Assembly: GCF_001461035.1 (NCBI RefSeq)
Contig: NZ_LNAM01000024.1
Span: 16,145-56,144 of the forward strand
DNA length: 40,000 bases
Direction of reading: 5' to 3'
DNA from: Acetivibrio ethanolgignens
Lineage (GTDB): Bacteria > Bacillota > Clostridia > Lachnospirales > Lachnospiraceae
Shown: in pieces, positions 1-28,699 of the stretch
How positions within the stretch are numbered: the stretch's first letter is position 1
How the letters are laid out: each line of letters opens with the position of its first letter
Notes under the pieces: generated by a model
Told to the model about the DNA's origin: nothing
Seen by the model: the letters and a program-made list of their open reading frames with translations, nothing else
The model's database searches: none
Made by a program: the position numbers and the translations under genes

Positions 1-193
1 CTTCAAAGGTAGCATTGGCAACTGGTGGCTGTCCTTCCTCTTGAAAACTTAAACCCCAGTTTCCTTCAGCTGACTGAAGCTGGCCTTGTGCCGTAGGCTG
101 GACGAGAAATCTGTCTACAGCCATGGCACTAAAGCGGCCGGCAAAGAAACAGGCCGCCAAGAGAAGACCAACACGAATGGATTTTGCTATCAT
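1..193 (-). CDS. Secreted protein, N-terminal part only (gene runs off the left edge); possibly polysaccharide deacetylase family
   Basis: ATG at 193 on the minus strand. Translation MIAKSIRVGLLLAACFFAGRFSAMAVDRF... looks like a signal peptide. The following NWGLSFQEEGQPPVANATFE resembles the region preceding the catalytic domain of PdaA/PdaB-type deacetylases (from memory, not searched). Confidence 0.55.
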   Translation of the reverse strand, partial: MIAKSIRVGLLLAACFFAGRFSAMAVDRFLVQPTAQGQLQSAEGNWGLSFQEEGQPPVANATFE

Positions 194-270
194 ATTCTTC
201 CTTTCAAACAACTTTACAGAAAATCTTAATTTATGTATATTGGAAAAAGAGAAGTTTCATGTTTCGTTTC

Positions 271-300
271 TGAAACTTTTTTAAAGGTTATACTGTCTAA
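271..300 (+). promoter_or_regulatory. Putative ECF-type (autoregulated) promoter TGAAAC-N17-TGTCTAA upstream of the sigma factor gene
   Basis: TGAAAC at 271-276 and TGTC at 294-297 match the AAC/CGTC-type architecture of group-IV sigma promoters. It lies about 50 nt upstream of the TTG start at 350. Confidence 0.4.
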
Positions 301-349
301 TAGATATAAAGGAAAAACGTCATGACGACCCCGACAGGAGGTAAATAAT

Positions 350-862
350 TTGGGTAGAAAAGAAAAAGCAGACAAGGTGAGTGAAACCTTGCTGGAAAAT
401 TATGAAAGACTTTACCGGTTTGCCTACTCTTATGTCTCCAACGAACAGGATGCCATGGATATTGTTCAGGAGGCCGCATATAAAGCTATACGAAGCTGTG
501 AAACCTTGAAAAATGAAAATTATACAATAAGCTGGCTATTTACGATTGTACGTAATCTGGCACTGGATGTACAGGAAAAACGAAAAAGGGAGCAGCCAGG
601 ACTTATAGAGGAATATTTGGAAAATAAGGAGGAATTTATCGTACAGATCCAGGATAACTGTGCCACAGAGCTTAGGGAGGCTTTAAAGCTGCTAGAGGAG
701 AAGGAAAGAACGATTATTGTGCTCCGGTTCTTTGAGGATAAGAAGCTAAGTGAGATTGCGGAAATCATGGGTGAGAATATTAATACAATAAAATCCAGGC
801 TTTACAGAGCTTTGCAGAAGCTGAGGATAGAGCTTGGAGATATGGCATATTTTGTAGGATAG
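350..862 (+). CDS. ECF (sigma-70 family, group IV) RNA polymerase sigma factor
   Basis: 170 aa. Region 2 motif DAMDIVQEAAYKA and region 4 HTH LSEIAEIMGENINTIKSRLYRALQKLR. RBS AGGAGG before the TTG start. Followed by an anti-sigma gene. Confidence 0.9.
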   Translation: MGRKEKADKVSETLLENYERLYRFAYSYVSNEQDAMDIVQEAAYKAIRSCETLKNENYTISWLFTIVRNLALDVQEKRKREQPGLIEEYLENKEEFIVQIQDNCATELREALKLLEEKERTIIVLRFFEDKKLSEIAEIMGENINTIKSRLYRALQKLRIELGDMAYFVG

Positions 863-881
863 TAAAGAATGGAGGAAGCTT

Positions 882-1796
882 ATGAATCAGAAGATGGAAG
901 AATTAAAACGGCAGTACGAGGAAATACCGATGCCGGAGGAACTAAAAGGGAAGGTAGAGGAGGCCATTAAAAGAGGCCAGGAGGCAGAAAGAAGAGAAAA
1001 GTACAGTAAAAAGAGAGGTGGCTGGCTTCTTATACTGAAAGGTGGAGGAGCTGTTGCGGCAGCGGCTTTACTTTCGATTGTAGTTTTGTCCAATACATCG
1101 GCTGAAACCGCCTATGCACTAGAAAACATTCCGGTTATTGGTGCAATCAGCCGGGTAGTAACCTTGAGTACCTTTGCAGATAAGCAGGGAGATTATGAAG
1201 CTAGCATCGATACACCAAAGATTGAAAGTGAAGAAGGAGAAAAAAAGAATCTGACCGAAGGAAAAGTAAACCTGAATCAAACAATGGCTGATTATACGGA
1301 AACGATTGAAAAGGCTTATGAGGCTGATTTAAAAGCAGCGGGTGACCTTGGTAAGGAAACGGTGGATACCAGCTATCAGGTATTGACAGATAATAAAAGG
1401 CTTCTGAGTATCCGTATTGATACAACTGTTGTTATGGCTAGCTCAAATGCCTTTTCAAAAATCTATCATCTAGATAAGACAACAGGAAAGCAGCTTGTAC
1501 TAAAGGACTTTTTTAGGCAGGATTCCAACTATATTGATGTGCTTACAGAGAGCCTGCTGAAACAGATGAAAAAGGCAAATGAAGAAGAGGAAGCGGCTTA
1601 CTTTATAGATACGGAGTATGGAGATGAGTTTAATTTTACACAGCTTGACCCGGAACAGAACTGCTACTGGGATGAAAAGGGAAATTTGGTAGTTGTATTT
1701 GATAAATACCAGGTTTCGGCAGGATGTATGGGCATGCCTGAATTAACAGTAGACCGTAATGTATTTTCAGAATGTCTGAAGCCAGAGTGGAAATGA
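882..1796 (+). CDS. Membrane anti-sigma factor with extracytoplasmic DUF4163/DUF3298-type domain (RsiV-like)
   Basis: 304 aa. Short cytoplasmic N-terminus, one TM segment (GGGAVAAAALLSIVVL), and a C-terminal domain ending in FDKYQVSAGCMGMPELTV, typical of DUF3298. Closely follows the sigma gene (19-nt gap). Confidence 0.8.
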   Translation: MNQKMEELKRQYEEIPMPEELKGKVEEAIKRGQEAERREKYSKKRGGWLLILKGGGAVAAAALLSIVVLSNTSAETAYALENIPVIGAISRVVTLSTFADKQGDYEASIDTPKIESEEGEKKNLTEGKVNLNQTMADYTETIEKAYEADLKAAGDLGKETVDTSYQVLTDNKRLLSIRIDTTVVMASSNAFSKIYHLDKTTGKQLVLKDFFRQDSNYIDVLTESLLKQMKKANEEEEAAYFIDTEYGDEFNFTQLDPEQNCYWDEKGNLVVVFDKYQVSAGCMGMPELTVDRNVFSECLKPEWK

Positions 1797-1885
1797 TACA
1801 GAAAATACAACAAAATTCTTGTCTTTTCCTAGAAGAAAGAATAGAATAGAAGCATAAAGTTAAAAAAGAAGGGAAGGTAAAAATT

Positions 1886-3316
1886 ATGCTTCGTACAAGA
1901 AAAGATAAAAAAATTATTCATGCAATTGTTCACATGCAGCCCGTAGAGAGGCAGAATGGCTCTCGGGAGCTTTTGGAAGTTCATGAAAGACTGATGAAGG
2001 GAAGAAAATCCTTTGAGGAGGTTGTTAGCAATACGCTTACTTCAGCAATGGGAATGAGTGCCTTGGATTTGCAGGTGAGTGACCGGGTGGAAGAACTCCA
2101 GAATATCAGCAGTGACTTATCTGTGCTGACCGGTGACTTAAAGGAAACCTCCAGACAGACGACGGAGATTACAAATGAGGTTTCCAAATCTCATGAGATG
2201 TTATCAGCTTCCATTGCAGAAATTTCCTCCAATACAGCAGATAGCTTAGAGGAAATTGAAAAAAGCCAGAAAAATATTGAAAACATTAAAGGCTTGTCCC
2301 ATCAGGCCTCCGAAGACTCTAAAAAAATGCAGGCAGATATGGCAGCGCTGATGTCAGTAATTGACCAGATGCAGACGGTAATTGCAAATATTAATGCAAT
2401 TTCCGGCCAGACCAATCTGCTTGCTTTGAATGCCTCTATAGAGGCAGCCAGAGCGGGTGAGGCCGGGGCAGGCTTTGCTGTCGTTGCAGATGAAATCCGT
2501 CAGCTGGCTGATGAAACAAAGGCACTGACAGACAATATGGGGAAATTTGTAGGAGATATCCAGGCAGCCTCCAGCCAGAGTGTTGAGAGTGTGGAGACAA
2601 CAGTAAAGGCATTGGAGCAGATAAACGATAACCTTACTGTTGTAGTTGAGGTAAATACAGATAACCGTGAACGTTTGAAAGAGATAAATGAAAGCCTTAC
2701 CAATATTGCTGCTACAGGTGAGGAAATCAGCAGCTCCATGAATGATGTGGGTAGCCATATCAGTTATTTGGATCAAAGACTGGAGGGACTTAATGCGGAT
2801 GCAAAGAACCTGGATCAGGTGAGTCAGCAGCTGTCCAAGGTAATAGCACCAATGTGTGCGATTGAAGATAATCTGAAAAATACGGCCCAGAGAATGGGGA
2901 AAATGGCACATGACACCTTCTATATGCCAGATAATGCCATGTTTATAGAAAACGTAAATAAGGCCGTTGAGGCACATAAGAACTGGTTGAAAACACTGGA
3001 TAAGATGATTTGTAATGAAAAAGCGCAGCCGCTGCAGACAAATGAGCATAAATGTGGATTTGGACATTTTTACTATGCAGTTGAGCCAAAGAATAAGGAG
3101 ATTCAGGCTATATGGAAAGGAATTGAAGGAAAGCACAAGCAGCTACATGGTTATGGAGCCCAGGCGATTACTGCATTGAAGCATGGCAATCCAGAGGAGG
3201 CGAGAACTGCTTATAAAAAGTCAGAGGATATTTCGAAGACCCTTCTGGCTGATTTTGATACGATAATTAAGCTGTCTCAGAAGCTGGACAAGGAGGGTAT
3301 CCGGGTATTTGAGTAA
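1886..3316 (+). CDS. Soluble methyl-accepting chemotaxis protein with C-terminal CZB (chemoreceptor zinc-binding) domain
   Basis: 476 aa. Highly conserved MCP signalling hairpin [37 protein letters not shown]. No TM segments. The C-terminus carries the CZB signature H-x2-W...C-G-F-G-H-F...H-x3-H (HKNWLKTL...[10 protein letters not shown]...GKHKQLH). Confidence 0.9.
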
Positions 3317-3354
3317 TACGATATCCAAAGAGAAACAAAAGGAGGCAGCAGACT

Positions 3355-5277
3355 GTGGAATATAATATCTGGTTTGATATATCTGGAATCCTTGTTCTGA
3401 TGGTAATTTTAATCAGTTTTTACATAGAAAATAACGTTCCGGTTATCCAGTACCAGTATTTCAAGAGGATGGTATGGATCGTGCTGCTGTCTGTAATTGC
3501 CGATTTGCTGATAGGCTTGTGGGGAAATCACCTTACTCAGGTGACAGCCGTATTTCCGATAGAGGTATCCGAGATACTCCATGTTGTTTATTTTGCTACG
3601 AAAAATGCGACACCACCGGCTTTTTTGCTTTATGTCCTCTCTGTTATGAATATCAGGGAAAAAACGATAAAGGGAATTTTAATACTTCTGATACCAGCAG
3701 CGATAGTAGAGGCTTTGATTTTTTTCAGCCCAGTAACAAACCTGATTTTTTATATTGATTCTGCTGGTGCGTATCATCGTGGACCGGCTCTTCCCTTTGC
3801 TTATGTAATTGCCGGTGCCTATATGGTATTTACCTTGGCACTTATGATTACATACCATAAGCTGGCTTCTGCGTTTCAGAGTGGAACTTTTGGAATCTTT
3901 ATTATGATGGCAATAATTACGGTTATTTTACAGGGCATTTTTCCAACATTTCTGGTAGAAGGATTTGGAATGGCAATTGGCTTACTGGCATGTTCTTTGG
4001 CGATTCAGAAGCCGGAGGAGATACTGGATGGTGCCACTGGTTTTTTAAATAAAAAGGTTTTTTCAGATTTGTGCAGGGCAAGATTTAAGGAAAAATCATC
4101 CTTTGCCGTACTGGTGATTGTTCTTGAAAATTATGATATCCTAGAGAAATCTTATGGGATTAATAATATTGAAAAGCTGGTATCAGAGGTGGCCGTTTAC
4201 CTTAAACGGTTTCAGGGGATTAGAGGCTGTCGGATAAGTGAGGATAAATTCTGCCTTTTGGAAAACAAGGCAGATGTTAAGACACTGGAGGATGCTATTG
4301 AACTGATAGACAGGCGATTCAAAAATGCCTGGAAGGTATCTGAATACAACGTAGTATTAGAAAGCTGCTGCTGTATGATACATTGTCCCCAGGATGCTTC
4401 TGATTTTCAGGAGCTTATGGATTTGATCGGAGCTGTCGCAAATCTCGGAAGAGAAGAGAATAGACATCTTATCCAGCTAAAGGAAATAGATTTGGAAGCG
4501 TTTTTCAGGCAGTGCAAAATTGAGAAGCTGGTAAAAGAAGCGGTGGAGAGGAATCTTTTGGAGGTTGTGTACCAGCCGATTTATTCTCCCAAAAAGAATC
4601 GTTTTTCTTCTGCAGAGGCATTGATACGGATGCGGGATGAAGAGCTTGGCAATATTTCTCCGGCAGAATTTATCCCGATTGCAGAGAAAAATGGTGCCAT
4701 AATAAAAATAGGAAAATATGTAATGGATACCGTATGCCGGTTTATGGCAGAGCATGATTTGAAAAAATATGGAATTGAGTATATTGAGGTAAATGTGTCT
4801 GCGGTAGAGTGCATGCAGGAGGACATGGTAGAGTGTGTGATGCATCATATCGCCTGTCATGACCTGGAGCCCAGACAGATTAATCTTGAAATTACAGAAA
4901 CAGCAATCAGCATTTTACCGGAAAGTATAAATGAGAAGATGGAACGTCTTTTGAAGGAAGGGGTTACCTTTTCTCTGGATGACTATGGCACTGGATATTC
5001 TAATTTAAGCCGTCTGGCAGCACTTCCGATAGAAATTGTTAAAGTTGATAAGACGATTGTACAGGCAGCCTTCGAGTCTGAAAAAATGAAAGTGATTTTG
5101 GATAATACCCTTGAGATGCTTGGCGGGCTGAAACGAAAGGTGCTTGTAGAGGGGGTAGAAAAAAAGGAACAGGCTGATTATTTGATTGAAAAGGGCTGTG
5201 ATTATATTCAAGGCTATTATTATGCAAAGCCAATGTCAGCAGATGATTTTTTAAAGCTCATAGAGAAACAAGTATAA
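3355..5277 (+). CDS. Membrane-bound c-di-GMP phosphodiesterase (multi-TM N-terminus, degenerate GGDEF, EAL domain)
   Basis: 640 aa, GTG start. About 6 hydrophobic helices. The middle domain lacks GG(D/E)EF (RISEDKF in its place). EAL motifs present: EVVYQPIY, EITE, DDYGTGYSNL, KVDK, EGVE, QGYYYAKP. Confidence 0.9.
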   Translation: MEYNIWFDISGILVLMVILISFYIENNVPVIQYQYFKRMVWIVLLSVIADLLIGLWGNHLTQVTAVFPIEVSEILHVVYFATKNATPPAFLLYVLSVMNIREKTIKGILILLIPAAIVEALIFFSPVTNLIFYIDSAGAYHRGPALPFAYVIAGAYMVFTLALMITYHKLASAFQSGTFGIFIMMAIITVILQGIFPTFLVEGFGMAIGLLACSLAIQKPEEILDGATGFLNKKVFSDLCRARFKEKSSFAVLVIVLENYDILEKSYGINNIEKLVSEVAVYLKRFQGIRGCRISEDKFCLLENKADVKTLEDAIELIDRRFKNAWKVSEYNVVLESCCCMIHCPQDASDFQELMDLIGAVANLGREENRHLIQLKEIDLEAFFRQCKIEKLVKEAVERNLLEVVYQPIYSPKKNRFSSAEALIRMRDEELGNISPAEFIPIAEKNGAIIKIGKYVMDTVCRFMAEHDLKKYGIEYIEVNVSAVECMQEDMVECVMHHIACHDLEPRQINLEITETAISILPESINEKMERLLKEGVTFSLDDYGTGYSNLSRLAALPIEIVKVDKTIVQAAFESEKMKVILDNTLEMLGGLKRKVLVEGVEKKEQADYLIEKGCDYIQGYYYAKPMSADDFLKLIEKQV

Positions 5278-5281
5278 AAGA

Positions 5282-5301
5282 GGAATGCCAAACAGCATTC
5301 C
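5282..5301. terminator. Bidirectional hairpin terminator between convergent genes
   Basis: GGAATGC (5282-5288) / GCATTCC (5295-5301), loop CAAACA, followed by CCTTTGCTTTTT on the plus strand. Sits between the EAL gene (+) and the catalase fragment (-). Confidence 0.6.
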
Positions 5302-5321
5302 CCTTTGCTTTTTGAAAAAAC

Positions 5322-5762
5322 TTAAGACTTCTGGCAGTCACAGGCAGCAGGCTTTACATCAAAACCAGGATTGAAGGCATAGAAATTCTTGAAATTCAAG
5401 TCATCCTGGACTCTTCGGAGAGCTTCGCCGAAACGCTGGAAATGAACCAGTTCTCTCTGGCGGAGGAAGCGGATTGGGTCGCAGACTTCAGGATCCTTTA
5501 CCAGCCGGAGAATATTGTCATAGGTGGAGCGTGCCTTTTGCTCGGCAGCCAAATCCTCAACCAGGTCGGTGATAGCATCACCCTTGGACTGGAATTCACA
5601 GGCATTAAACGGAATGCCTCCGGCAGCCTGCGGCCATAGACCGACCGTATGGTCAACATAGTAGTTTGCAAAGCCGGTGTTTTCGATTTCCTCCGGCGTC
5701 AGGTCGCGAGTCAGCTGGTGAACGATGGTAGATATCATTTCCATGTGTGCCAGCTCATTAGC
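5322..5762 (-). pseudogene. Manganese catalase (CotJC family), 3' fragment only, truncated by prophage insertion
   Basis: Translation ...ANELAHMEMISTIVHQLTRDLTPEEI...AAEQKARSTYD...IRFLRQRELVHFQRF matches the region of Mn catalases/CotJC starting at the TEE(F/L)AH(L/M)EMI metal-binding helix. The roughly 65-70 N-terminal residues are missing. The frame is closed by TGA/TAA at 5763-5768. Confidence 0.85.
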
Positions 5763-5782
5763 TCATTAATGTTGGAAGTGTT
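5745..5782. other. Left prophage/host junction (attL region)
   Basis: Catalase homology ends around 5756-5762. The integrase stop codon is at 5783-5785. A tandem 8-mer GCTCATTA GCTCATTA lies at 5753-5768, right at the breakpoint. Confidence 0.6.
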
Positions 5783-7426
5783 CTATAACAATAACTTTAC
5801 ATTAATTTCAAACGGTGTTTCCGACCAATTGCCGCCTGCTTTCAGCTTAACATCCTTCTGTGTATCTTTTTTTAATCTTTGTGACTGTTCTCTCCTGTAT
5901 TCAATTCTGCTAATACAGTTTTTTAATAACTGATTCTTTTTCTGTGCAGATGCATCAGGATTTCTTAGTGCGGAAAGAGCATCTTTAAATTTTATGATTT
6001 TTTCTTCATAAGAAATTGGCTCTGGCATTGATGCATAAGCTTCTCGTAAGGAATTTTGAACTTCTTCTTTCTCCTTTAAAAGTTTTTCATTGAGTTGCTT
6101 AAATATCTCTTGTGGCATTCTATTTGAAGGGTCAGGGTCAGCCTGTGCCTCCCACTGTGCTAGTTCCTTAGCTTGCAAATCTTGGAGCTTTTTTTCAAGG
6201 TGTTTTATTATGTCTGCTTGAATTTTAGCAGAGTCCTTACCATCATTTCTAAGTAAAATTTCAAAATCATGAATAGAATCTTCCAGAACTTCACATACCT
6301 TTTCTATTAATTCATCGTATAAGCAAGAGGTTGTGTGGCAATACTTTTGTCCATCGCATAATAGTCTTGGAGAGCAGCGTTCGCTTCCATCTGAATTTTT
6401 ATAGAATCTCAAAGACATTGCTCTGCCGCAGCTACAATATAAAAGACCTGCCAGTGGATTTCTGATTTTGGTTTTTGCCTTTGCTCTATGATTTCTGCCT
6501 TGCTTTTCCTGTGCGGCTTCAAAGAGTTCTTCAGAAATTATAGCTTTATGCCGGCCTTCATAGATTAGGAACTCTCCCATGCGTGCCTTAGGCCTTGTCT
6601 TAATAATTTCACTGTCCTCGACGACAGTTACAGTTTTTCTCCAGTTCCATTTTACCTTTCCGATATAATGTATATTTTCAAGCATATCTTTCAGAGCGGC
6701 AGGGGACCAGTGTATACCTTTAGGCGGTTTGATTCCCATATCGTCCAAATAATTACATATACTGGCCCTTCTCATGTCTTTATTTACATATAATTCAAAA
6801 ATCATACGGATAACGTCGGCTTGCTCAGGATTTTCAACCAGGGTAGGACATTTCCTTTTCCCATCCAGAATAAAGGCTTTATCATAGCCATATGGAGGAA
6901 CAGAACCGATATAATTGCCCTGACTGACTGAAAGTAGTCTGCCTCTGCTCAATATCTTTTTGGTGTACTCCAGATAATCATTTCCGCGTTTTAACTCTCT
7001 TTCAAAGGCATCCCAGTCATATTCATCCTGCAAATCATAAATCCTTTGTGGAGTGATAATTAGGGTGTGAGTATGTTTAAAAAGCTTCATTAGCCGACCA
7101 ATGTCCTCTAAATCACCTCTTGTCAGACGTTGAGGCTCTACAATGCATACAGCTTTGATTTTAGGAGATTCTATCTGCCTGAGTACTTTATTGATTTCTG
7201 GTCTTTCCTTTAATGTTTCCCCAGAAACAACTTCTCTATATTTATTTTCCTCCGGTATCTTTTCACCAAGGCTTTTTTCTGCCCATTCATCCAAAATAGT
7301 TTCATGTTTCTCCAAGACTTCTTCAACAGACAGCATAGGATCATCAGAACGGGATTTCCTCAAATATACAATTATTTCATCTTTTTTTAGGTTTTCTAAA
7401 TTATATTTCATAAATTCATAGTTCAT
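5783..7426 (-). CDS. Large serine recombinase (phage integrase)
   Basis: 547 aa. N-terminal resolvase domain with catalytic Ser context IIVYLRKSRSDDP. Recombinase domain (VPPYGYD, VENPEQADVIRMIFELY). Cys-rich zinc ribbon (LLYCSCGRAMSL...CDGQKYCHTTSC). C-terminal coiled coil. Confidence 0.95.
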   Translation of the reverse strand: MNYEFMKYNLENLKKDEIIVYLRKSRSDDPMLSVEEVLEKHETILDEWAEKSLGEKIPEENKYREVVSGETLKERPEINKVLRQIESPKIKAVCIVEPQRLTRGDLEDIGRLMKLFKHTHTLIITPQRIYDLQDEYDWDAFERELKRGNDYLEYTKKILSRGRLLSVSQGNYIGSVPPYGYDKAFILDGKRKCPTLVENPEQADVIRMIFELYVNKDMRRASICNYLDDMGIKPPKGIHWSPAALKDMLENIHYIGKVKWNWRKTVTVVEDSEIIKTRPKARMGEFLIYEGRHKAIISEELFEAAQEKQGRNHRAKAKTKIRNPLAGLLYCSCGRAMSLRFYKNSDGSERCSPRLLCDGQKYCHTTSCLYDELIEKVCEVLEDSIHDFEILLRNDGKDSAKIQADIIKHLEKKLQDLQAKELAQWEAQADPDPSNRMPQEIFKQLNEKLLKEKEEVQNSLREAYASMPEPISYEEKIIKFKDALSALRNPDASAQKKNQLLKNCISRIEYRREQSQRLKKDTQKDVKLKAGGNWSETPFEINVKLLL

Positions 7427-7499
7427 ATTACCACTCCTATCTTAAAATTTATGAAAAATAGTATAAAAAATACACCTACTTGCCAGAACAGGTGCAGGA

Positions 7500-7538
7500 G
7501 TGATATAATATGACTTGTCTAGGGAGATATTATATCAC
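7500..7538. promoter_or_regulatory. Perfect 12-bp inverted repeat upstream of the integrase gene
   Basis: GTGATATAATAT (7500-7511) and ATATTATATCAC (7527-7538), separated by 15 nt. Each arm contains TATAAT on one strand. It lies 74-112 nt upstream of the integrase ATG. Confidence 0.35.
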
Positions 7539-7568
7539 TTTGGCTTGTCCGGTATAGTATCTATAAAA

Positions 7569-7603
7569 GCCGTTTCTGTTGGTAGCAGAGGCGGTTTTTA
7601 TTT
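7569..7603. terminator. Hairpin plus T-run immediately downstream of the Abi gene
   Basis: GCCGTTTCTG (7569-7578) / CAGAGGCGGT (7586-7595). The pairing includes G-U pairs on the plus strand and two mismatches on the minus strand. Flanked by T-runs on both strands. Located directly after the stop codon at 7604. Confidence 0.45.
7579..7599. repeat. Cassette boundary repeat R2, copy a (TTGGTAGCAGAGGCGGTTTTT)
   Basis: 20 of 21 identical to 9182-9202. Lies directly downstream of the Abi gene stop. Confidence 0.8.
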
Positions 7604-8617
7604 TTATAAAAATCTACGCTCAAAGAGGTTATTTAGGCGAGAAAATAAGTCATTTGGAAATCCAAATACTTCAAAAACATTTTTAGTGTTAAAATGAGTA
7701 TCTTGATTAGCATAAGGAGAAAGAAGCGAATACAATTCTTCATAAAAATTTCGTAAGACATATTGGTCATTTAATAAAATGTTAAGAGCAAGCAATACAG
7801 CCATAACATCGTTTTGCCCCATCTTAGAATTATATTCTTCTTCTATAATTGTATTAAAACTAAGTGTCAATAGCTGCTTTTTAGGAAGTTGCGGTAGGTT
7901 TAATGCACTAAATGTTCTATTTCCATGTGCAATTTTGTTTCTATATTCTTTAGTAAGTTCAAGAGATTTTCTCATAAATTCTTTAGTTTCTTCAATAGTA
8001 AGGATGCCAGAAGAAATAAAAGAATTACAAATAGACTCTTTATCACAGCTTTTCAGTATGTTATACCATTCAATAGTTAAACCATAAGAAAGATTTGTAA
8101 TTAAAATCCAAGCTGGAATATGATTACGATGGTTAATGTAGTGCTGCATACTTGGATTATTTCTTGACTGGTGAATACTTTCTTTTAAACCAATCAGGAT
8201 ATTGATACGTTTTCTATTGGAGTTTGTATAATTGCTTTTGCATAAATAGTCACTAGGGTTAGAGAAACTTCTGTCACTGGCGTCTGTAAATACACCATAT
8301 TTTTCTGATACCAGATATGATATTCTTGATTTTAAAGCTTTTTCTAAATACAAAATATACTTAAAAATTATGCTGTTTAAAGATACATCCAAAAGATGGA
8401 GTGTATATAACTCTTCAAATTTAGTACCATTAATAAAATCATCGGAATCTGGAATTTGAAGAAATGTATTTTTGTATGCATTAATTAACCCATAGTAAGA
8501 AAGATTTTGCAGAGCAGTTATCGCAAACTCCTTGTCTTCAACAATGATATTACGACTTTCCATAAGCGCAATCATTTGTTCATATGTTTTGAATGGTTTA
8601 TCATATGTGTTGTTCAA
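7604..8617 (-). CDS. Abi_2 family (AbiD/AbiF-like) abortive-infection protein
   Basis: Motifs DKPFKTYEQMIALMESRNIIV, LSYYGLINAYKNTF, FEELYTLHLLDVSLNSIIFKYILYLEKALKSRISY and NKIAHGNRTF match the Abi_2 family as I remember it. Preferred start is TTG at 8617, 9 nt after GGAAGGAGGG. The tracked ORF extends to ATG 8758 but would run through a terminator-like hairpin and overlap the upstream gene. Confidence 0.85.
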   Translation of the reverse strand: MNNTYDKPFKTYEQMIALMESRNIIVEDKEFAITALQNLSYYGLINAYKNTFLQIPDSDDFINGTKFEELYTLHLLDVSLNSIIFKYILYLEKALKSRISYLVSEKYGVFTDASDRSFSNPSDYLCKSNYTNSNRKRINILIGLKESIHQSRNNPSMQHYINHRNHIPAWILITNLSYGLTIEWYNILKSCDKESICNSFISSGILTIEETKEFMRKSLELTKEYRNKIAHGNRTFSALNLPQLPKKQLLTLSFNTIIEEEYNSKMGQNDVMAVLLALNILLNDQYVLRNFYEELYSLLSPYANQDTHFNTKNVFEVFGFPNDLFSRLNNLFERRFL

Positions 8618-8622
8618 AAGAA

Positions 8623-8711
8623 AAAAACCCTCCTTCCAAAACTGGTAAGAGGGTTTTTCGCTAGTCATCTCAACAACGACCATTTCTGTTGAGATAATCT
8701 TACCAGTTTTG
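8623..8711 (-). promoter_or_regulatory. Structured RNA leader (nested helices plus terminator-like hairpin that includes the RBS) between the small ORF and the Abi gene
   Basis: On the minus-strand RNA: P1 is CAAAACUGGUAAGA (8711-8698) with UCUUACCAGUUUUG (8650-8637), 14 bp perfect. P2 is AUCUCAACA (8695-8687) with UGUUGAGAU (8675-8667), 9 bp. The terminator-like stem is AAAAACCCUC (8658-8649) with GAGGGUUUUU (8632-8623), followed by UUCUUUUG. The P1 3' strand lies in the terminator loop. Confidence 0.5.
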
Positions 8712-8721
8712 AGATATAATG

Positions 8722-9135
8722 TCAAGCTAATTTTATAGGGTCTCCAATTTTTATACATACATTTTCAGGCGTTAATTTTTGGATATCATCACGGTTTATA
8801 TTTAATGGAACTGCTACCTTTCTTGTGGTTTCCAAAAGAGGCGATAAAGCCGCTGCGGTAGAGGAAGAAGTTTTTTCCATTAGAGGTTTTTGGCACACGG
8901 AAAAGGTTTTTTCTGTACGAATAACTTCCAACTCATCTTTGCAAAAGATATAACGCTCAAGTGGTGTACCATCGAGATCTAAGATTTCTTCGCCAATCTC
9001 ATAGACTTGTACGATATCACCTATTTTTAAAACGCCTCTGCCGGCATTTACAATAATGGTTCGGCTGTCAATAATACGAATGACATTTGCAATATAATAA
9101 GGACCATACTTCTTTTTCATTTCGTCTTTGTTCAT
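8722..9135 (-). CDS. Hypothetical 137-aa protein, first gene of the Abi operon (no domain recognised)
   Basis: ATG preceded by AAAGGAG at 9-nt spacing. No TM segment or HTH. Beta-rich-looking sequence with a repeated KIGD(I/P) element near the N- and C-termini, and a Ser/Thr/Ala linker (EKTSSSTAAALSPLLETT). Confidence 0.75.
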   Translation of the reverse strand: MNKDEMKKKYGPYYIANVIRIIDSRTIIVNAGRGVLKIGDIVQVYEIGEEILDLDGTPLERYIFCKDELEVIRTEKTFSVCQKPLMEKTSSSTAAALSPLLETTRKVAVPLNINRDDIQKLTPENVCIKIGDPIKLA

Positions 9136-9893: not shown

Positions 9894-10613
9894 TTATTCT
9901 ACTTTGTCTAAAACTTTTCCAATAACTTTTACATTCTCTAAATTTTTGATATTTTTATATTCTTTATTAATGGAAATAAGCTCATTTTCACCCAATTCCT
10001 TTATATAACAATTATTTCCGTCAATAAATATTCCAATTTCGCCTACAGATAATTCAATTGTTTTCTTTACAAATACCTTATCTCCATCGTTATATACAGG
10101 CTTCATGCTATCCCCATTTACCCCAATAACAAAATCTGCGTTTCTTGATTTTTCGTTATCTTCAACTTCTATAAAATCAGTTGGAATATCACTGAATAAA
10201 TATTCTCCTGTTCCGGCAGATGCAAGTTTTTGATAGTAGCTGATTATTCTGGTCGGCTTTTCTTCTTTTTTGGATTTCATTCTTTCTGTTTCCCATTGGA
10301 GAATGGTATTAACGTGTTCTTGACCAATAGGGTCCAAATCTCTATATTTCTTTAATAATTCTTGTTCTCCGTATTTTAAAATGAATTTTGAGTCTGGATA
10401 TATTCCATAAATATCATTAATAGAAACATTCAATATTTCACAAACTTCAAATAGTATATCAATAGTAGGACAATTTGCTCCAGTTTCCCAATTAGATATT
10501 CTAGAAGGAACAACACCTAATCTTTTTGCTAATTCTTTTTGGCTAAGACCAGCCTGTTCTCTATATTTACCAATATTTTTAGAAATATTTTTTTTGATTG
10601 TATCGTCACTCAT
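9894..10613 (-). CDS. CI-like prophage repressor (XRE HTH plus S24 LexA-type peptidase domain)
   Basis: 239 aa. N-terminal HTH LSQKELAKRLGVVPSRISNWETG. C-terminal S24 motifs GVNGDSMKP...GDKVFVKK. Divergent from a Cro-like gene. Confidence 0.95.
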   Translation of the reverse strand: MSDDTIKKNISKNIGKYREQAGLSQKELAKRLGVVPSRISNWETGANCPTIDILFEVCEILNVSINDIYGIYPDSKFILKYGEQELLKKYRDLDPIGQEHVNTILQWETERMKSKKEEKPTRIISYYQKLASAGTGEYLFSDIPTDFIEVEDNEKSRNADFVIGVNGDSMKPVYNDGDKVFVKKTIELSVGEIGIFIDGNNCYIKELGENELISINKEYKNIKNLENVKVIGKVLDKVE

Positions 10614-10768: not shown

Positions 10769-10981
10769 TTGAAAGGTAGTGACATTAAAAAGTATCTTGA
10801 TGATAACGGAATTAAACAGACATTTGTATCGGAAAAAACAGGGATACCAGCACCAATATTAAGCATGATCCTAAATAACAACAGAAAGATTGAAGCAAAT
10901 GAATACATGAAAATTTGTGATGCAATTGGAGTACCACTTGACTATTTCCGACCTTGTTCAAGTAAAAAGAAAGGAGCATAA
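10769..10981 (+). CDS. Cro-like XRE-family HTH protein
   Basis: 70 aa. TTG start 8 nt after AAAGGAGG. HTH IKQTFVSEKTGIPAPILSMILNNNRKI. Divergent from the repressor. Confidence 0.85.
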   Translation: MKGSDIKKYLDDNGIKQTFVSEKTGIPAPILSMILNNNRKIEANEYMKICDAIGVPLDYFRPCSSKKKGA

Positions 10982-13999: not shown

Positions 14000-14237
14000 G
14001 AAGAATATTCCCGAAAAGCATATCTTGACTTTTGATGTAGAAAGACATTTAAAGGAAAAAGAAAGGCTAAACCAAGCATTAAACGGTAATCTTTCTGGTT
14101 TTGAAAATGATATAAAGGAAGTTCTCAAAAAATACAATATTGATTTATGCAATGGAATAGCCTTTGATTCTTTCATCTATGTATTGGAACAAATACATAT
14201 TGAAAAATTCAATATAAAGCTAGTTTTTGCGAATTAA
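13998..14237 (+). CDS. Hypothetical protein (79 aa)
   Basis: ATG preceded by the duplicated ..AACGGAGCATAAA.. RBS region. Confidence 0.6.
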   Translation: MKNIPEKHILTFDVERHLKEKERLNQALNGNLSGFENDIKEVLKKYNIDLCNGIAFDSFIYVLEQIHIEKFNIKLVFAN

Positions 14238-14286
14238 GACAATCAATACCAGAATAATTTAGTACATATAGGAAGGAAGTGTTGTA

Positions 14287-14502
14287 ATGAGAGGTCAGGA
14301 TACTTACAAGGAAGTAAAAACATATACATATCCAAATGCAATCGTCAGGGTGTACATACCTGACCTTACAGAGGAAGAACGCGAGCGAAGGATGAAAAAT
14401 CTTATGAAACAGACAGAGATATTCATGAAAGGAGTATTAGCAGACGAAATGGCTGCGAAAAAAGAAAAATGCAAAAGAGAAGATGCAGAGAAATTACATT
14501 AA
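14287..14502 (+). CDS. Hypothetical protein (71 aa)
   Basis: RBS GGAAGGAAG. The VRVYIPDLTEEERERRMK motif is common in small phage/ICE proteins of Clostridia (from memory). Confidence 0.65.
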   Translation: MRGQDTYKEVKTYTYPNAIVRVYIPDLTEEERERRMKNLMKQTEIFMKGVLADEMAAKKEKCKREDAEKLH

Positions 14503-18780: not shown

Positions 18781-19356
18781 GTGACGGATGGAAATTACAT
18801 AAAAATCTACCGCTCTATGCTTGACTGGGAATGGTATCAAGATATCAATACCTGCAGATTATTTTTGCATATGCTCCTGAAAGCAAATTGGAAAGACGGA
18901 AAATTCCAAGGTACAACTGTGCCGCGTGGTTCATTCATATCCTCTCTGCCAAAGCTTTCCGAAGAAACAAAACTGACAGTTGATGAAATTCGGACAGCTT
19001 TGAAGCACCTGGAAAAAACAGGGGAAGTTACCAGGCAAACCACAAACCGAAGTTCCATGTTTACCGTGGTTAATTACCAGTTGTACCAAGGAACTTCCCA
19101 GACAAATCCCAATCCAATCCCAGGCAGTTCCCAGTCTATTCCCAGTCCATTCCCAGCAATAGAAGAAGAGAAAGAAAGGGAAGAAGGAAAAGAAATTAAG
19201 AAGGAAAGAAAGAATATTACAGTTTCTAACGAAACTGTTTGTCAGACTGACGTCAGACTTATCCTTGATGCATGCAACAGTATTCCTTCTTTGGAGAAAA
19301 GCAATTACAGGCGTATGGGTTTGTGTAAAAGAGTATTATTATTCAGGAAGAGATGA
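18781..19356 (+). pseudogene. Phage replisome-organizer / replication protein, N-terminal wHTH part only; the 3' part is replaced by out-of-frame terminase sequence
   Basis: YIKIYRSMLDWEWYQD...LFLHMLLKANWKDGKFQGTTVPRGSFISSLPKLSEETKLTVDEIRTALKHLEKTGEV is the usual N-terminal domain. After ..VRLILDACNSIPSL the frame runs into terL-derived DNA and terminates. Confidence 0.6.
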
Positions 19357-19741
19357 AGTGGCACAGAAAACAGATGCAGAGTACACTGAGGATTTAAAGC
19401 AGTTCCTTGGCAGCATTAAGATTAAAGCAGTAATCGTTGACCCGAGTGCCGCTTCTTTTATTGCACAGTTAAAGAAAAGCGGATTTAAGGTAAGGAAAGC
19501 GAATAACGATGTTCTGGATGGAATTCGCTTTGTTGGAACACTACTTAATCAGAAAAAGATACGGTTTTATAAAGACTGTGTTAATACCGTAAAAGAATTT
19601 AATTCTTATGTATGGGACAACAAGGCAGTGGAAAAAGGGGAAGACAAGCCGGTAAAACAGTTTGACCATTGCATGGATGCGGTAAGGTATTTCTGCATGA
19701 CAGTAATTAAGATGAAGCAGTCATTAAGCATTTTGAAATAG
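19265..19741 (+). pseudogene. Terminase large subunit (PBSX/Terminase_3 type), C-terminal nuclease-domain remnant (about 140 aa)
   Basis: ...VWVCVKEYYYSG...KAVIVDPSAASFIAQLKKSGFKVRKANNDVLDGIRFVGTLLNQKKIRFYKDCVNTVKEFNSYVWD...FDHCMDAVRYF is the C-terminal third of a TerL. There is no ATPase domain (Walker A/B), no plausible start/RBS and no small-subunit gene upstream. Confidence 0.8.
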
Positions 19742-19743
19742 AG

Positions 19744-21141
19744 GTGAAAAGAGTGGATTTAGAGAGTGCAAAAAAACTCATTAAGGAGCATATGCCAGTT
19801 CATGAGAAATTCGTGAAAGATGCAATTGAGGCGAAGAGGTATTATCGGAACGAGAATGATATATTGACAAAAGGTGCGAGAAGGGAAAAGGAACAGTCAG
19901 AAGATACTCCTATCCGTAGTGCAGATAATCGCATTAGTCATAATTTCCACGGGCTTTTGGTAAATCAGAAAACTGCATATATGTTTACAGCCTCACCTTT
20001 GTTTGACATCGGAAATCCAGAAGCAAACAAAAGGATAGCCAATGTCCTTGGGGATAAATATGCAAAAGTCTGCAAAGATTTGTGTATCAATGCCTCCAAT
20101 GCTTCTGTGTCATGGCTACATTATTGGAAGGATGAAAAAGGTACATTCAAATATGGTGTCATAGAAAGCGAGCAGATCATACCAGTGTGGAGCAGTGATT
20201 TGGAAAGAGAACTGCAGTCGGTACTGCGTGTATATCGAAGAACCCAGGATGATGGGAAAACATATACAGTGTATGAGATATGGACAGAAAAGGAGTGCCA
20301 GTCTTTTATAAGACAGGAAAATCTATCGGTAGATATTGGGCTTTCGTATTATAGTATATTGGATTTTTCCGTTGTGGATACGTCAGAAGGAAGCATTTAT
20401 GATCATGGGATGGAAAGAGTCCCTTTCATCCCTTTTTTCAATAATAATGTGAATACCAATGATTTGAAAAATATCAAAGGACTGATAGACGCTTATGATA
20501 AAGTTTACAGCGGTTATGTGAATGACTTGGAAGATATACAGGAAATCATCTTTATTTTAAGTGGTTATGGCGGCACTGATTTGAAAGAGTTTATGCAGGA
20601 CTTGAAATTGTATAAGGCTGTAAAACTGGATGCCGACAGCGATAAGCCGGGGTTATCCACACTTGCCATTGATATTCCGGTGGAGGCAAGAGAAAAGCTT
20701 CTTGCCATGACTAGAAAAGAAATCTTTGAACAGGGTCAGGGAGTAGACCCACAGCCGGAATCATTTGGCAACAAATCAGGCGAGGCTTTGAAGTTTATGT
20801 ATGCTCTCTTGGAACTGAAAGCCGGTTTGATGGAAACAGAGTTTAAGCTTGGTTTCGGAGAACTTGTAAGGGCGATCTGTCAGTATTTGAATGTACCTTG
20901 TGAAACGCTTACCCAGACATGGACGAGGACATCCATTAAAAACGATACCGAGATTTCAGATATTTGTAGAAACAGCGTAGGAATCATATCTAATAAGACT
21001 GTTTTGAAAAACCATCCTCTTGTTGAAAATGCGGAAGAGGAAGAAAAACAGATAGCCAAGGAGAAGAAAGAGGCAGAGGAATCAGAACAGGAGTACAAAA
21101 GAGCATTTGCAGATAAAAGCGGTGATGTAGATGAAGAATAG
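19744..21141 (+). CDS. Portal protein (SPP1 gp6-like)
   Basis: 465 aa. Position immediately after terL. Acidic C-terminus. The AKRYYRNENDI...NRISHNFHGLLVNQKTAYMF pattern is typical of SPP1-type portals. Confidence 0.9.
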   Translation: MKRVDLESAKKLIKEHMPVHEKFVKDAIEAKRYYRNENDILTKGARREKEQSEDTPIRSADNRISHNFHGLLVNQKTAYMFTASPLFDIGNPEANKRIANVLGDKYAKVCKDLCINASNASVSWLHYWKDEKGTFKYGVIESEQIIPVWSSDLERELQSVLRVYRRTQDDGKTYTVYEIWTEKECQSFIRQENLSVDIGLSYYSILDFSVVDTSEGSIYDHGMERVPFIPFFNNNVNTNDLKNIKGLIDAYDKVYSGYVNDLEDIQEIIFILSGYGGTDLKEFMQDLKLYKAVKLDADSDKPGLSTLAIDIPVEAREKLLAMTRKEIFEQGQGVDPQPESFGNKSGEALKFMYALLELKAGLMETEFKLGFGELVRAICQYLNVPCETLTQTWTRTSIKNDTEISDICRNSVGIISNKTVLKNHPLVENAEEEEKQIAKEKKEAEESEQEYKRAFADKSGDVDEE

Positions 21142-22627: not shown

Positions 22628-22887
22628 TGGCATTAACGGCGAGAGAATGGACTTTATTACCAAAAGACGAAATGGAGGCAAGACAAGGTGAATTGTCTCC
22701 GGGAGAATGCTTTAAGCTTAGGACGGAGCTAAGTATGATACATTTGACAGAGGAACAAAAAGCCAGAATGACAGAGGAGGAAAAAAACAAATTTATTAAT
22801 CAGAAATATCCCAAAAGAACAGAAGAGGAAAAGAGAGAGATTGAAAGACAAGCAAGAGAAGTTTTTAGATCGCTGCTGGAGGATTAA
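22624..22887 (+). CDS. Hypothetical protein (87 aa)
   Basis: ATGATG overlap with the preceding stop. Charged, Glu/Lys-rich. Confidence 0.6.
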   Translation: MMALTAREWTLLPKDEMEARQGELSPGECFKLRTELSMIHLTEEQKARMTEEEKNKFINQKYPKRTEEEKREIERQAREVFRSLLED

Positions 22888-22889
22888 AG

Positions 22890-23123
22890 ATGGCAAAGGA
22901 TGATTATTTTGTAATTGTATACAGGATACTGAATTATCTGTATGAATGTTTCAAAGCCGGCGAAAGACCGGATATGGAAATGTTCGGACCCGTTGCTCTT
23001 CGGATTAATAATGGATATTGGGTGAATGTCATGGAAAGTCTTTATTTGGTGGTTTTTATGCTACAAATTAAAAAGTTGCACTGGCACAACAGAATGGAGG
23101 ACATATGGAACTTAACAGTTTAG
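22890..23123 (+). CDS. YjcQ-like protein, C-terminally divergent or truncated
   Basis: MAKDDYFVIVYRILNYLYECFKAGERPDMEMFG...INNGYWVNVMESLY matches the N-terminus of clostridial YjcQ-family proteins as I recall them. The last ~25 aa do not. Confidence 0.55.
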   Translation: MAKDDYFVIVYRILNYLYECFKAGERPDMEMFGPVALRINNGYWVNVMESLYLVVFMLQIKKLHWHNRMEDIWNLTV

Positions 23124-23314
23124 AAATAAATACAAGCGGCAGCTTAGGAAATATTATTCTGAATGGAGAAGACATATCGAAAAAAATTACAAAGGTAGAA
23201 TATGTACATGAAGGAGGCGAAATTCCATTTATAAAAATAACATATCCTGTAGATGAAATAAAAATTAATGCAAATGTAATAGTAAATGAAATACCAGATA
23301 ATCAGAACACTTAG
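23105..23314 (+). CDS. Hypothetical protein (69 aa)
   Basis: ORF with GGAGGACAT before the ATG. Followed directly by a terminator. Confidence 0.5.
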   Translation: MELNSLEINTSGSLGNIILNGEDISKKITKVEYVHEGGEIPFIKITYPVDEIKINANVIVNEIPDNQNT

Positions 23315-23333
23315 AGATAGGTGTTCTTTTTAT
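23304..23333 (+). terminator. Rho-independent terminator inside the late region
   Basis: AGAACAC (23304-23310) / GTGTTCT (23321-23327), followed by TTTTAT. The stop codon of the preceding ORF sits in the loop. Confidence 0.6.
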
Positions 23334-23421
23334 ATGCCGCCTTTCCGGTACCGCAGGCGGAAAAGAACGGGACATCACCGGACACGACCGGGGCAACAAG
23401 TGAAGATGAAAGGAGACTATC

Positions 23422-24030: not shown

Positions 24031-24051
24031 GAAAGGAAAAGGTGATATTTT

Positions 24052-26670: not shown

Positions 26671-26676
26671 TACTAT

Positions 26677-28167: not shown

Positions 28168-28180
28168 GGAGGAAGAGCAG

Positions 28181-28678: not shown

Positions 28679-28699
28679 AAGAAAAGGAGAAAGAGAAAA

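Follow-up and report, generated by a model that had tools for sequence, protein, structure and literature searches.

The window analysed here, a stretch of 40,000 nucleotides of Acetivibrio ethanolgignens, opens with host genes, which are followed on the minus strand by the 3' part of a manganese catalase gene, a large serine recombinase (LSR) gene and a prophage (Table 1). The four host-flank genes are the same four that follow the intact cotJC in conspecific metagenome-assembled genomes (MAGs). The minus-strand ORF 5322..5762 matches the Pfam family Mn_catalase (PF05067, E 1.7e-23) over profile positions 65-196 of 284 only, and shares 98.6% identity with residues 65-208 of an intact 208-aa homologue (P0001). 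Its identity as a Mn catalase is also borne out by PDB Mn catalases among the matches; catalases of this type have a di-manganese fold with conserved E-x-x-H metal motifs. In the interrupted and the empty loci alike, the catalase is encoded by the third gene after those coding for CotJA (PF11007) and CotJB (PF12652); the split gene is a real cotJC, third in the cotJA-cotJB-cotJC operon.

Table 1. Features of the 40,000-nt window discussed in the text.
Feature	Position	Strand	Remarks
Host flank	350..5277	+	ECF-type sigma factor, DUF3298 protein, chemoreceptor, GGDEF-EAL protein
3' fragment of cotJC	5322..5756	-	codons 65-208 and stop; Mn catalase of CotJC type
attL	5734..5777	-	empty-site homology starts at 5756; attR from L113/L111
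attL host arm GCTGGCACACATGGAAATGAT	5754..5734	-
Tandem octamer GCTCATTA GCTCATTA	5753..5768	.	attP left-arm inner motif, then spacer, central GA, first host bases
attL central dinucleotide GA	5756..5755	-
attL phage arm TTCCAACATTAATGAGCTAAT	5777..5757	-
LSR (integrase), 547 aa	5783..7426	-	Pfam Resolvase PF00239 and Recombinase PF07508
LSR leader	7427..7603	-	inverted repeat and terminator-like hairpin
Abi_2 abortive-infection-type accessory gene	7604..8758	-	PF07751, E 1.4e-33; phrog_2158
CI/LexA-like repressor	9894..10613	-	HTH_3 and Peptidase_S24
Cro-like HTH gene	10769..10981	+	divergent from repressor
Conserved motif AGACAATCAATACCAGAATAATTT (RGACAA-N10-MATAnnnT)	14237..14260	+	27-50 nt before start of 71-aa ORF
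71-aa ORF, candidate recombination directionality factor (RDF)	14287..14502	+	by co-occurrence only
DnaD-like loader ORF	18781..19356	+	directly before terminase remnant
Terminase large subunit (TerL) remnant	19265..19741	+	C-terminal nuclease part only; Terminase_6C positions 72-153/155; phrog matches
Myovirus-type late genes	19744..39583	+	PHROG matches, E 1e-50 to 1e-165

The original prediction described this ORF as the C-terminal part of a Mn catalase/CotJC protein, closed by two stop codons, with a recombinase gene ending 20 nt further on and a prophage splitting the gene, and all of this is found: the frame upstream of the fragment reads TAA (5768-5766), TGA (5765-5763), then A-N-E-L-A-H-M-E-M-I, the recombinase stop codon lies at the distance given, and the LSR gene adjoins the fragment with a myovirus-type prophage behind it. 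The EELAHMEMI helix, in which the ORF was said to start, is present as well; however, blastn against the empty site places the beginning of host homology at 5756 and not at 5762, the A-N codons at the fragment start being phage DNA. The insertion lies within codon 65, and the predicted 2-bp crossover, GA, belongs to the codon for the second Glu of T-E-E-L-A-H, a metal-binding motif. In the clade, cotJC is evidently under purifying selection, judged by a single comparison with 29 synonymous versus 2 non-synonymous codon differences. A selection test on the split halves is powerless, as their sequence is the same as that of the intact alleles. A search for a sigma-E promoter upstream of cotJA yielded a weak match only, as judged by eye.

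The recombinase (KSV60273.1 / WP_058351474.1 of A. ethanolgignens) matches the phrog_95 integrase (E 1e-79), and its best PDB match is SPbeta SprA/YokA (9dxh, E 2.4e-30, residues 16-509). In its domains (N-terminal resolvase catalytic domain, recombinase domain and C-terminal extension), its length (~450-600 aa being typical) and an attP that is quasi-palindromic around a predicted crossover point (~40-50 bp being typical), it corresponds to LSRs of the phage-integrase type. The translation includes a Cys-rich stretch, to which the Pfam zinc-ribbon model gave no score. The gene ends 5 nt from the phage arm of attL, and the ORF is of full length, this length being 100% conserved in 6 further assemblies. 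The leader contains a perfect 13-bp inverted repeat (7539..7527 / 7511..7499), within which TGATATAAT occurs on either strand, and, directly ahead of the ribosome-binding site, a terminator-like hairpin (7496..7471). A riboswitch or other known RNA was considered for the leader and rejected, as no Rfam family was matched and the fold does not rise above that of shuffled sequences (z -1.3).

Judged by its gene content, the element is a myovirus-type prophage running past position 40,000. The late genes code for portal, head morphogenesis, major head, sheath, tape measure, baseplate and fibre-like proteins; a scan of viral contigs with the fibre-like protein revealed no relative. For the last ORF of the window, the sole record is a 1.3-kb contig. 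In line with the packaging defect proposed in the original prediction, TerL is reduced to its C-terminal remnant, and neither the terminase ATPase domain nor a small subunit was found. With the ATPase lost, the domain content implies that the prophage can probably no longer package DNA.

Attachment sites and the uninterrupted allele

The search proposed with the original prediction, for a 5' fragment behind cotJB, for strains with an uninterrupted gene and for a reconstruction of attB and attP, gave a result on each of these points. The 5' fragment was recovered as P0145/P0146 (codons 1-65); P0145 is 100% identical over residues 1-65 and is encoded on a 72,009-bp NCBI contig. Since the contig with the window proteins has this length too, and the source agrees, the fragment would seem to be placed on the contig of the window, behind cotJA-cotJB. 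The attR DNA has the same position relative to cotJA-cotJB in five metagenome assemblies. The attR sequence was read from the closely related metagenome Logan contigs L113/L111, the attR DNA of the metagenome contigs showing a difference of a single T within a T-run. In the same-species MAGs GCA_048617435.1 and GCA_048617415.1 the site is empty, the flanking genes are identical and cotJC is intact, coding for 208 aa; their alleles are 99.5-99.9% identical to the window across 5,756 bp. Homology to the uninterrupted allele ends at the window junction, exact to the base, and the split is therefore not due to chance. Between the 3' fragment and the intact alleles L118 and L119, 0 of 435 nt differ; on this comparison of filled and empty alleles the insertion is recent or strain-variable.

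The sequences of attL and attR share the 11 bp GAGCTGGCACA (5756..5746). Reconstruction from attL, attR and the empty site gave GATATTGGTACCGAGGAGCTGGCACACATGGAAATG for attB and ACTTCCAACATTAATGAGCTAATGAGCTGGCACATTTATGTTGGAAGT for attP, the latter being a 44-bp quasi-palindrome around GA with symmetry at 16/21 arm positions and the layout ACTTCCAACAT-TAATGAGC-TAAT-GA-GCTG-GCACATTT-ATGTTGGAAGT. This symmetry would place the crossover at GA. When the two halves are joined in silico at GA, the resulting ORF equals the protein of the intact allele (P0122) with 0 mismatches, and precise excision would thus rebuild cotJC exactly, with a protein identical to that of the intact allele. The arm layout and the central GA/TC are common to 12 related viral contigs and Roseburia phage Jekyll; in relatives the central dinucleotide is GA or TC, and the gene side that is joined flips to match. 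The same dinucleotide in other catalase genes has served for integration, in either orientation, of relatives of the window recombinase (L002/L003, L010/L011, L022, L026, L101).

The tandem described at the breakpoint is real, the only two copies of GCTCATTA in the window being those at 5753 and 5761, but it was not made by the insertion. Read on the minus strand, the first copy (TAATGAGC) is an inner motif of the attP left arm that is also found in the relatives L008 and L015, and the second copy is made up of TAAT, the central GA and GC of the host. A target-site duplication was rejected as the origin of the octamer, since what stands there is a motif of the attP arm and then the core. It is the tandem that supplies the frame-closing TGA and TAA.

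A candidate directionality factor and the fate of the split gene

Profile matches to the 71-aa ORF were obtained in 17 of 17 loci that have a window-type LSR and enough upstream sequence, whereas loci of other LSR classes gave no matches. A homologue is encoded by phage Jekyll (VUE37419.1, E 3.9e-7). This distribution points to the 71-aa protein as a candidate directionality factor of this LSR clade. It belongs to no Pfam, PHROG, NCBIfam or PDB family, and the AF2 model (pLDDT 87.7) consists of a beta-hairpin and a long helix, for which Foldseek returned no match. A SprB-like RDF was considered and rejected, as the PDB, with the SprA-SprB fusion chain among its entries, yielded no match to the profile; neither in sequence nor in fold did the protein show likeness to known RDFs.

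The conserved motif AGACAATCAATACCAGAATAATTT upstream of the ORF is the sole match in the window, where 0.23 would be expected. Of 13 upstream regions examined, 10 have RGACAA-N10-MATAnnnT at a distance of 38-54 nt from the start of the homologous ORF, 9 related loci each contain a single match to the exact fixed-spacing form, in that position, and phage Jekyll carries a one-mismatch copy upstream of its homologue. The motif includes a -10-like element, CATAnnnT, with non-canonical spacing. Of the RDF with a sporulation promoter that was to be looked for, a candidate RDF is at hand by co-occurrence; the motif upstream of it is non-canonical, and no conserved or sigma-E/K-type promoter was found upstream of the window LSR or of related recombinase genes.

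With moderate confidence, we read the locus as the result of site-specific integration of a temperate A. ethanolgignens myovirus into cotJC, catalysed by the SprA-like LSR. The lysogen would have been left with cotJC in two inert pieces, of which the one at attR comprises codons 1-65 and the one at attL codons 65-208. The terminase ATPase would have been lost from the prophage later, and with it, probably, packaging. The gene for the recombinase is intact, as are the two att sites and the two halves of cotJC. Excision, that is, recombination of attL with attR, would need the recombinase and a directionality factor, for which the 71-aa protein on the early-lytic side is proposed. It may follow derepression of the prophage through the LexA-like S24 repressor, as the presumed trigger, and would restore cotJC exactly.

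A sporulation-type intervening element comparable to skin or SPbeta, excised only in the mother cell by the LSR and an RDF under a mother-cell promoter while the spore genome keeps the element, is possible but rather doubtful. In its favour, the cotJ operon of Bacillus subtilis is sigma-E-dependent and mother-cell-specific. Intervening elements lie almost always in mother-cell genes (PMC6957869), and several tested elements of this kind excise in sporulation (PMC4191935, PMC5595907, PMC10747680). The closest structure to the LSR being SprA, the defective look of the prophage beside an intact recombination unit, the splitting of the same gene by small non-phage elements (L005, L072) and the resemblance of CATAnnnT(A) upstream of the RDF candidate to a sigma-E/K -10 element are consistent with such a role. 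However, the spacing of the motif is wrong for sigma-K/sigma-E, it also occurs in a mitomycin-inducible lytic phage, Jekyll, and the recombinase genes lack a conserved upstream promoter. The species description gives A. ethanolgignens as non-sporeforming; a literature search found no direct data on its sporulation genes, and the empty-site strains keep the cotJ operon intact. Mutants of the cotJC type in C. difficile have mild phenotypes (PMC11222575), and in Sellimonas catena a decayed remnant with a truncated recombinase sits at cotJC, from which it follows that reconstitution is not always maintained. Nor does the strain-variable, recent insertion favour a sporulation role, and long-term domestication, as suggested in the original prediction, cannot be inferred from it.

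The Sellimonas catena remnant, which shows that loss of cotJC is tolerated, also lends something to the view that the insertion is a dead end, with the recombinase, the factor or their expression lost and cotJC inactivated, tolerated by a strain that does not sporulate or has other catalases. The large deletion that the prophage already has, the description of the host as non-sporeforming and metagenome contigs that cross attR with no branch at the junction point the same way. We nevertheless consider a dead end very unlikely, given a recombinase ORF of full length that is conserved in length, intact and quasi-palindromic att sites, gene halves free of lesions, and an intact candidate RDF ORF with its upstream motif.

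cotJC as an insertion target

LSR elements break cotJC in 23 of 80 sampled species representatives (~29%), mostly Lachnospiraceae. These split genes represent at least four junction types, made in related species by recombinases of several lineages, in both orientations and with elements from 1.6 kb to whole prophages; in relatives, the gene is also split by small non-phage elements with intact recombinases (L005, 3.9 kb; L072, ~6 kb). Going by these loci, elements of this kind commonly dock at the same short stretch of cotJC in gut bacteria related to A. ethanolgignens. We think that it is used because it offers almost invariant DNA in a gene that growing cells can do without. An extension of this view, which we regard as unlikely, is lineage-wide docking in gut Lachnospiraceae, where LSRs of several lineages would have converged on two targets, the ~15-bp stretch that codes for D-I-G-T-E-E-L-A-H and the motif A-A-E-Q-K-A-R, with cargo from complete phages to 4-6-kb cassettes, the elements being developmentally excised switches driven by an unrecognised family of small RDFs represented by the 71-aa protein. 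If this were true, about a quarter of the species would have to rearrange their mother-cell DNA in order to make the spore-coat catalase.

In Bacillus and a few clostridia, much work has been done on prophage-like elements that interrupt sporulation genes and restore them on excision; to our knowledge, very little is known about them in the dominant spore-forming commensals of the mammalian gut, whose spores drive transmission between hosts. For A. ethanolgignens, a pig-gut bacterium, a base-level att map and natural filled and empty alleles within one species are now at hand, and these make excision directly testable by PCR. New are the share of sampled species, mostly Lachnospiraceae, with a recombinase-bearing element inside cotJC, and a candidate directionality factor for a whole LSR clade that includes the cultured inducible phage Jekyll. 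A matched set of integrase, RDF and att sites could serve as a genome-engineering tool, and even if excision is not linked to sporulation, the conserved metal-binding motif would still be a 'safe harbour' for phages.

Comparison with known elements

As far as the sequence goes, the locus has the makings of an intervening element: a sporulation gene is interrupted, both halves appear restorable, and the element's own recombinase lies beside the att site. In SPbeta/spsM of Bacillus subtilis (SprA, SprB), an LSR prophage likewise interrupts a spore-surface gene of the mother cell, and the gene is made whole again by precise excision. The gene, the site and the bacterial class are different, the window LSR is only ~27% identical, no SprB homologue was found here, and the A. 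ethanolgignens prophage appears unable to package; excision in sporulation has been demonstrated for SPbeta (PMC4191935), and sporulation-specific excision for skin, whereas for the present element it is a possibility. The skin element in sigK (SpoIVCA; Skr in B. subtilis, CD1234 in C. difficile) is similar in being a defective prophage-like element with a serine recombinase at its edge, directly upstream of the 3' fragment. However, sigK is a regulator gating late sporulation and cotJC codes for a structural/enzymatic coat protein. The gin element in gerE of Bacillus cereus ATCC 10987 resembles L005 and L072, these being minimal non-prophage elements with little beyond the recombination unit, but it differs from the nearly complete prophage of the window, as well as in gene and recombinase.

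The closest isolated phage by recombinase (42.6% identity) is Roseburia phage Jekyll (LR596902.1), which has the same attP architecture, including the central GA and a core GAATT that fits Glu-Leu codons, and the homologous 71-aa ORF with its motif. In contrast to the window prophage, Jekyll is an active mitomycin-inducible siphovirus (10.1101/575076; the paper names no attachment site in the host). As regards the target gene itself, a skin-like element in cotJC of Laceyella sacchari was described in silico (10.1101/2022.02.25.481979), and in another report cotJC is listed beside gerE, yaaH and yhbH as a target after Abe et al. 2013 (cited in 10.1101/2021.11.22.469490). The two reports have the target gene and recombinase-bearing elements in common with the present case, but their hosts are Bacilli, and att site, recombinase clade, prevalence and excision data do not figure in them. 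The A. ethanolgignens element differs from them in its Lachnospiraceae host, in a site mapped to the base and in belonging to a hot spot used by several recombinase lineages.

The divided catalase gene and its in silico restoration

The truncated manganese catalase gene of the original prediction was borne out by its match to the Pfam Mn_catalase profile (E 1.7e-23), which begins only at profile position 65; solved Mn catalases are likewise aligned by the same frame from their residue 65. The two stop codons shutting the frame upstream, the next gene, coding for a 547-aa large serine recombinase (LSR) with Resolvase and Recombinase domains, and the tandem octamer GCTCATTA, of which the window holds no other copy, were all found in their predicted places. 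Exact look-up assigned the LSR, the GGDEF-EAL protein adjoining it (KSV60272.1) and a further product (KSV60317.1) to Acetivibrio ethanolgignens.

Features of the window and of the comparison loci
Feature	Position	Strand	Remarks
Open frame with cotJC 3' fragment	5322..5762	-	
Octamer copies	5753 and 5761		tandem
Stop codons TGA and TAA	5765-5763 and 5768-5766		
LSR gene	5783..7426	-	KSV60273.1 / WP_058351474.1
Inverted repeat of the recombinase leader	within 7471-7539	-	perfect, 13 bp, AGTGATATAATAT / ATATTATATCACT
Abi_2 abortive-infection-type gene	7604-8758	-	between recombinase and repressor
DUF4160 protein and overlapping 90-aa partner	9227-9761	-	between recombinase and repressor
RGACAA-N10-MATAnnnT	14237-14260	+	
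71-aa ORF	14287..14502	+	
DnaD-like loader ORF and terminase piece	18781-19741		piece directly after the loader ORF, before portal gene
ORF of KSV60317.1	39197..39583		
L002, element with window-type recombinase	1-8209		
L005, response regulator	6223-7029	-	full length, with Spo0A_C domain
L106, Spo0A_C-only protein	10333-10668	+	111 aa
L058, L071, L086, L095, second cotJC break	about 10405		one in each locus
Phage Jekyll, record end (L116)	4600-4630		...ATCTGAACCGATGAATT
Phage Jekyll, record start (L117)	1-30		GAATTGGGATGGAGATGTTGGATATG

The prophage is still running where the window stops on the right, and attR, its opposite end, is therefore outside. With residues 1-65 of an intact homologue as the query, the predicted 5' catalase fragment was identified. 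P0145 (87 aa) matches these residues at 100% identity before continuing LAHLCWKF..., and derives from an NCBI contig of 72,009 bp, the length of the contig that carries the three window proteins named above. The near-identical P0146 is encoded on five Logan contigs in the order mreB, cotJA, cotJB, cotJC 5' fragment. The lack of any matching 5' piece, which would have spoken against the original prediction, was thus not observed. The attR sequence of these contigs is GATATTGGTACCGAG-GA-GCTGGCACATTTATGTTGGAAGTTT. Since the P0146 DNA, once a T-run is lengthened by one T, translates into P0145, we infer that this is the attR belonging to the window's element. Of the five independent contigs (L111-L115), four end at an identical base, 13 nt past the stop of the 5'-fragment ORF, and the variable T-run sits just before this shared end, which suggests prophage variants diverging at this point.

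Metagenome-assembled genomes (MAGs) of Acetivibrio ethanolgignens encode an intact 208-aa CotJC (P0122), and the uninterrupted gene was found in three conspecific loci (L118-L120) in the order mreB, cotJA, cotJB, cotJC, EAL, chemoreceptor, DUF3298 and sigma factor, the last four being the left-hand genes of the window. Positions 1..5756 of the window share 99.5-99.9% identity with these loci, and homology ceases at 5756; that of the attR contigs ends 11 bp further on, and therefore attR and the window's own junction, attL, have GAGCTGGCACA in common. Joining the left part of attR to the right part of attL at GA in silico gave a 208-aa ORF with no mismatches to P0122. Because the gene halves do not differ from the intact alleles (0/435), the insertion appears to be young or the strains very close. 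Within the clade, 29 synonymous and 2 non-synonymous codon differences in cotJC point to purifying selection.

Attachment sites and state of the prophage

The window attL, the Logan attR and the empty-site loci allowed the reconstruction of both parental sites, namely attB, GATATTGGTACCGAG-GA-GCTGGCACACATGGAAATGATATC, and attP, ACTTCCAACAT TAATGAGC TAAT GA GCTG GCACATTT ATGTTGGAAGT, a quasi-palindrome with an arm symmetry of 16/21 around GA. A scan of viral contigs with the LSR returned 23 loci (22 at 55-69% identity, one at 34%), twelve of which carry a site of the same layout, with central GA or TC, directly after the recombinase stop codon; among isolated phages the closest, Roseburia phage Jekyll (recombinase identity 42.6%), has such a site too. 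Since related loci and Jekyll share this layout, the window's first TAATGAGC is an inner motif of the phage arm and its second is TAAT + GA + GC of the host. A duplication created by the insertion was thus ruled out as the origin of the tandem octamer, whose second copy spans into the host. The crossover is placed at GA from symmetry, as the 11-bp identity hides its exact position from direct reading. The two ends of the Jekyll record (LR596902.1) form an attP laid out like that of the window, with a core compatible with Glu-Leu codons, and on these grounds Jekyll, too, may have its integration site in a Mn catalase gene in Roseburia intestinalis.

The prophage codes for portal, head proteins, sheath, tape measure, baseplate and a fibre-like protein. 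The sole terminase signal is a 158-aa ORF spanning the end of the nuclease domain of the large subunit; neither the ATPase domain nor the small subunit was seen in the window's prophage, so a deletion has probably removed both and left the phage unable to package, as originally proposed. The lysogeny module is an ordinary one, composed of recombinase, Abi_2 gene, DUF4160 pair, S24/HTH repressor and divergent Cro-like gene. The inverted repeat in the recombinase leader holds, on either strand, an extended -10-like TGATATAAT and is followed, just before the ribosome-binding site, by a terminator-like hairpin; the leader has no Rfam match and an unremarkable folding energy.

A candidate recombination directionality factor

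When the ORFs of the window's prophage were compared with all ORFs of related loci, widespread matches came from only three: the LSR, an ORF antisense to it, whose apparent sharing is an artefact of its position inside the recombinase gene, and a 71-aa ORF. The profile of the 71-aa family matched every one of the 17 loci in which the recombinase is of the window type and 2.3 kb or more of sequence upstream is available, the small element L002 included, and none with a recombinase of another class. In Jekyll, a homologue (VUE37419.1, E 3.9e-7) stands first among the leftward early genes. On the basis of this co-occurrence we infer that the protein is a candidate recombination directionality factor (RDF). 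No relative was detected in Pfam, PHROG, NCBIfam or PDB; the single-sequence AF2 model, a beta-hairpin and a long helix (pLDDT 87.7), gave no fold match. The ORF is always on the strand opposite the recombinase, at a distance of 6.9 kb in the window versus 1-3.4 kb in relatives, because accessory genes are inserted between recombinase and repressor.

In 10 of 13 cases the ORF is preceded, 38-54 nt before its start codon, by the motif RGACAA-N10-MATAnnnT, which occurs once in the window (0.23 expected). With this exact spacing, nine related loci have one match each, at that very place, and the Jekyll copy has one mismatch. Matching places were recorded in L002, L008, L009, L013, L016, L021, L024-L026 and L121, elements that are otherwise unrelated. 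CATAnnnT(A) is similar to the -10 element of sigma-E/K promoters; GACAA, however, is 4-5 nt nearer to it than the sigma-K rule allows, and the spacing is not known to fit a sigma factor consensus. Being partly palindromic (GAC-N5-GTC), the motif may be an operator.

cotJC as an insertion hot spot

Integrated relatives of the LSR occupy the same dinucleotide as the window element, among them L002/L003 from a JGI metagenome and L010/L011, whose recombinase is 69% identical and whose catalase is only 59% identical. In L022, L026 and L101, the central dinucleotide in the recombinase-sense strand is TC and the element is joined to the 5' instead of the 3' fragment, the behaviour expected of a serine integrase with orientation set by the central dinucleotide. 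The 8 kb available of L002 encodes HicA/HicB, a YafQ-like toxin, a PBECR3 protein, an S24 peptidase fragment and a gene with a Cas7 match, and no phage structural genes.

A genome scan with the N-terminal 64 residues gave, among the matches listed, 80 species-representative loci, mostly of Lachnospiraceae, a sample which is not random, though we see no reason for a bias toward split genes. The catalase reading ends within the codons D-I-G-T-E-E-L in 19 of these 80, at a contig edge in one, and at A-A-E-Q-K-A-R, in the second metal-binding helix, in four (L058, L071, L086, L095). The latter break marks a second recombinase insertion site in the gene, with a serine recombinase gene of distant relationship 0.5-0.7 kb away. 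Three junction types were distinguished at the first site: at GA, as in the window, with arms that end ...ATGATGGAA (7 loci); at GGTA|GAGAAGCCCCTGAAATGTTCC (10 loci, six of which have a different recombinase nearby); and within GGTAC (2 loci, plus L005). Many breaks are adjoined by recombinase genes, and both gene halves are visible in several cases, among them L005, L061, L072 and L106. The element of L005 measures 3.9 kb (core GGTACAGA); that of L072 (~6 kb) encodes an intact 549-aa recombinase along with a methylase and a MatE pump; in L061, the 5' fragment borders on endolysin and tail genes, a layout as in the window; and the complete genome of Sellimonas catena (L106) retains a 1.57-kb remnant with intact att arms and a frameshifted, truncated recombinase. 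Spo0A_C proteins are encoded in the small cotJC-splitting elements of both L005 and L106; a mobile element lodged in a sporulation gene might, by bringing its own copy of the DNA-binding domain of the master regulator, disturb the entry into sporulation. The hot spot and the candidate RDF are the parts most deserving of follow-up.

The proposal of a sporulation-type intervening element is thus partly supported: the split of cotJC by a prophage with an SprA-like integrase is real and looks reversible, although the species description of Acetivibrio ethanolgignens, a member of Lachnospiraceae for which reclassification has been proposed, terms it 'nonsporeforming'. Among the literature searched, no paper was found on this att site, the recombinase clade, the prevalence among Lachnospiraceae or any RDF of the clade. 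For Bacilli, cotJC is already on record as a target of insertion, one case being Laceyella sacchari (10.1101/2022.02.25.481979), and further cases are listed by Abe et al. 2013, according to the citing paper (10.1101/2021.11.22.469490). In C. difficile R20291, the phi027 prophage directly adjoins CDR20291_1465, a CotJC-like Mn catalase gene, which was lost along with the prophage in a deletion mutant (PMC11222575).
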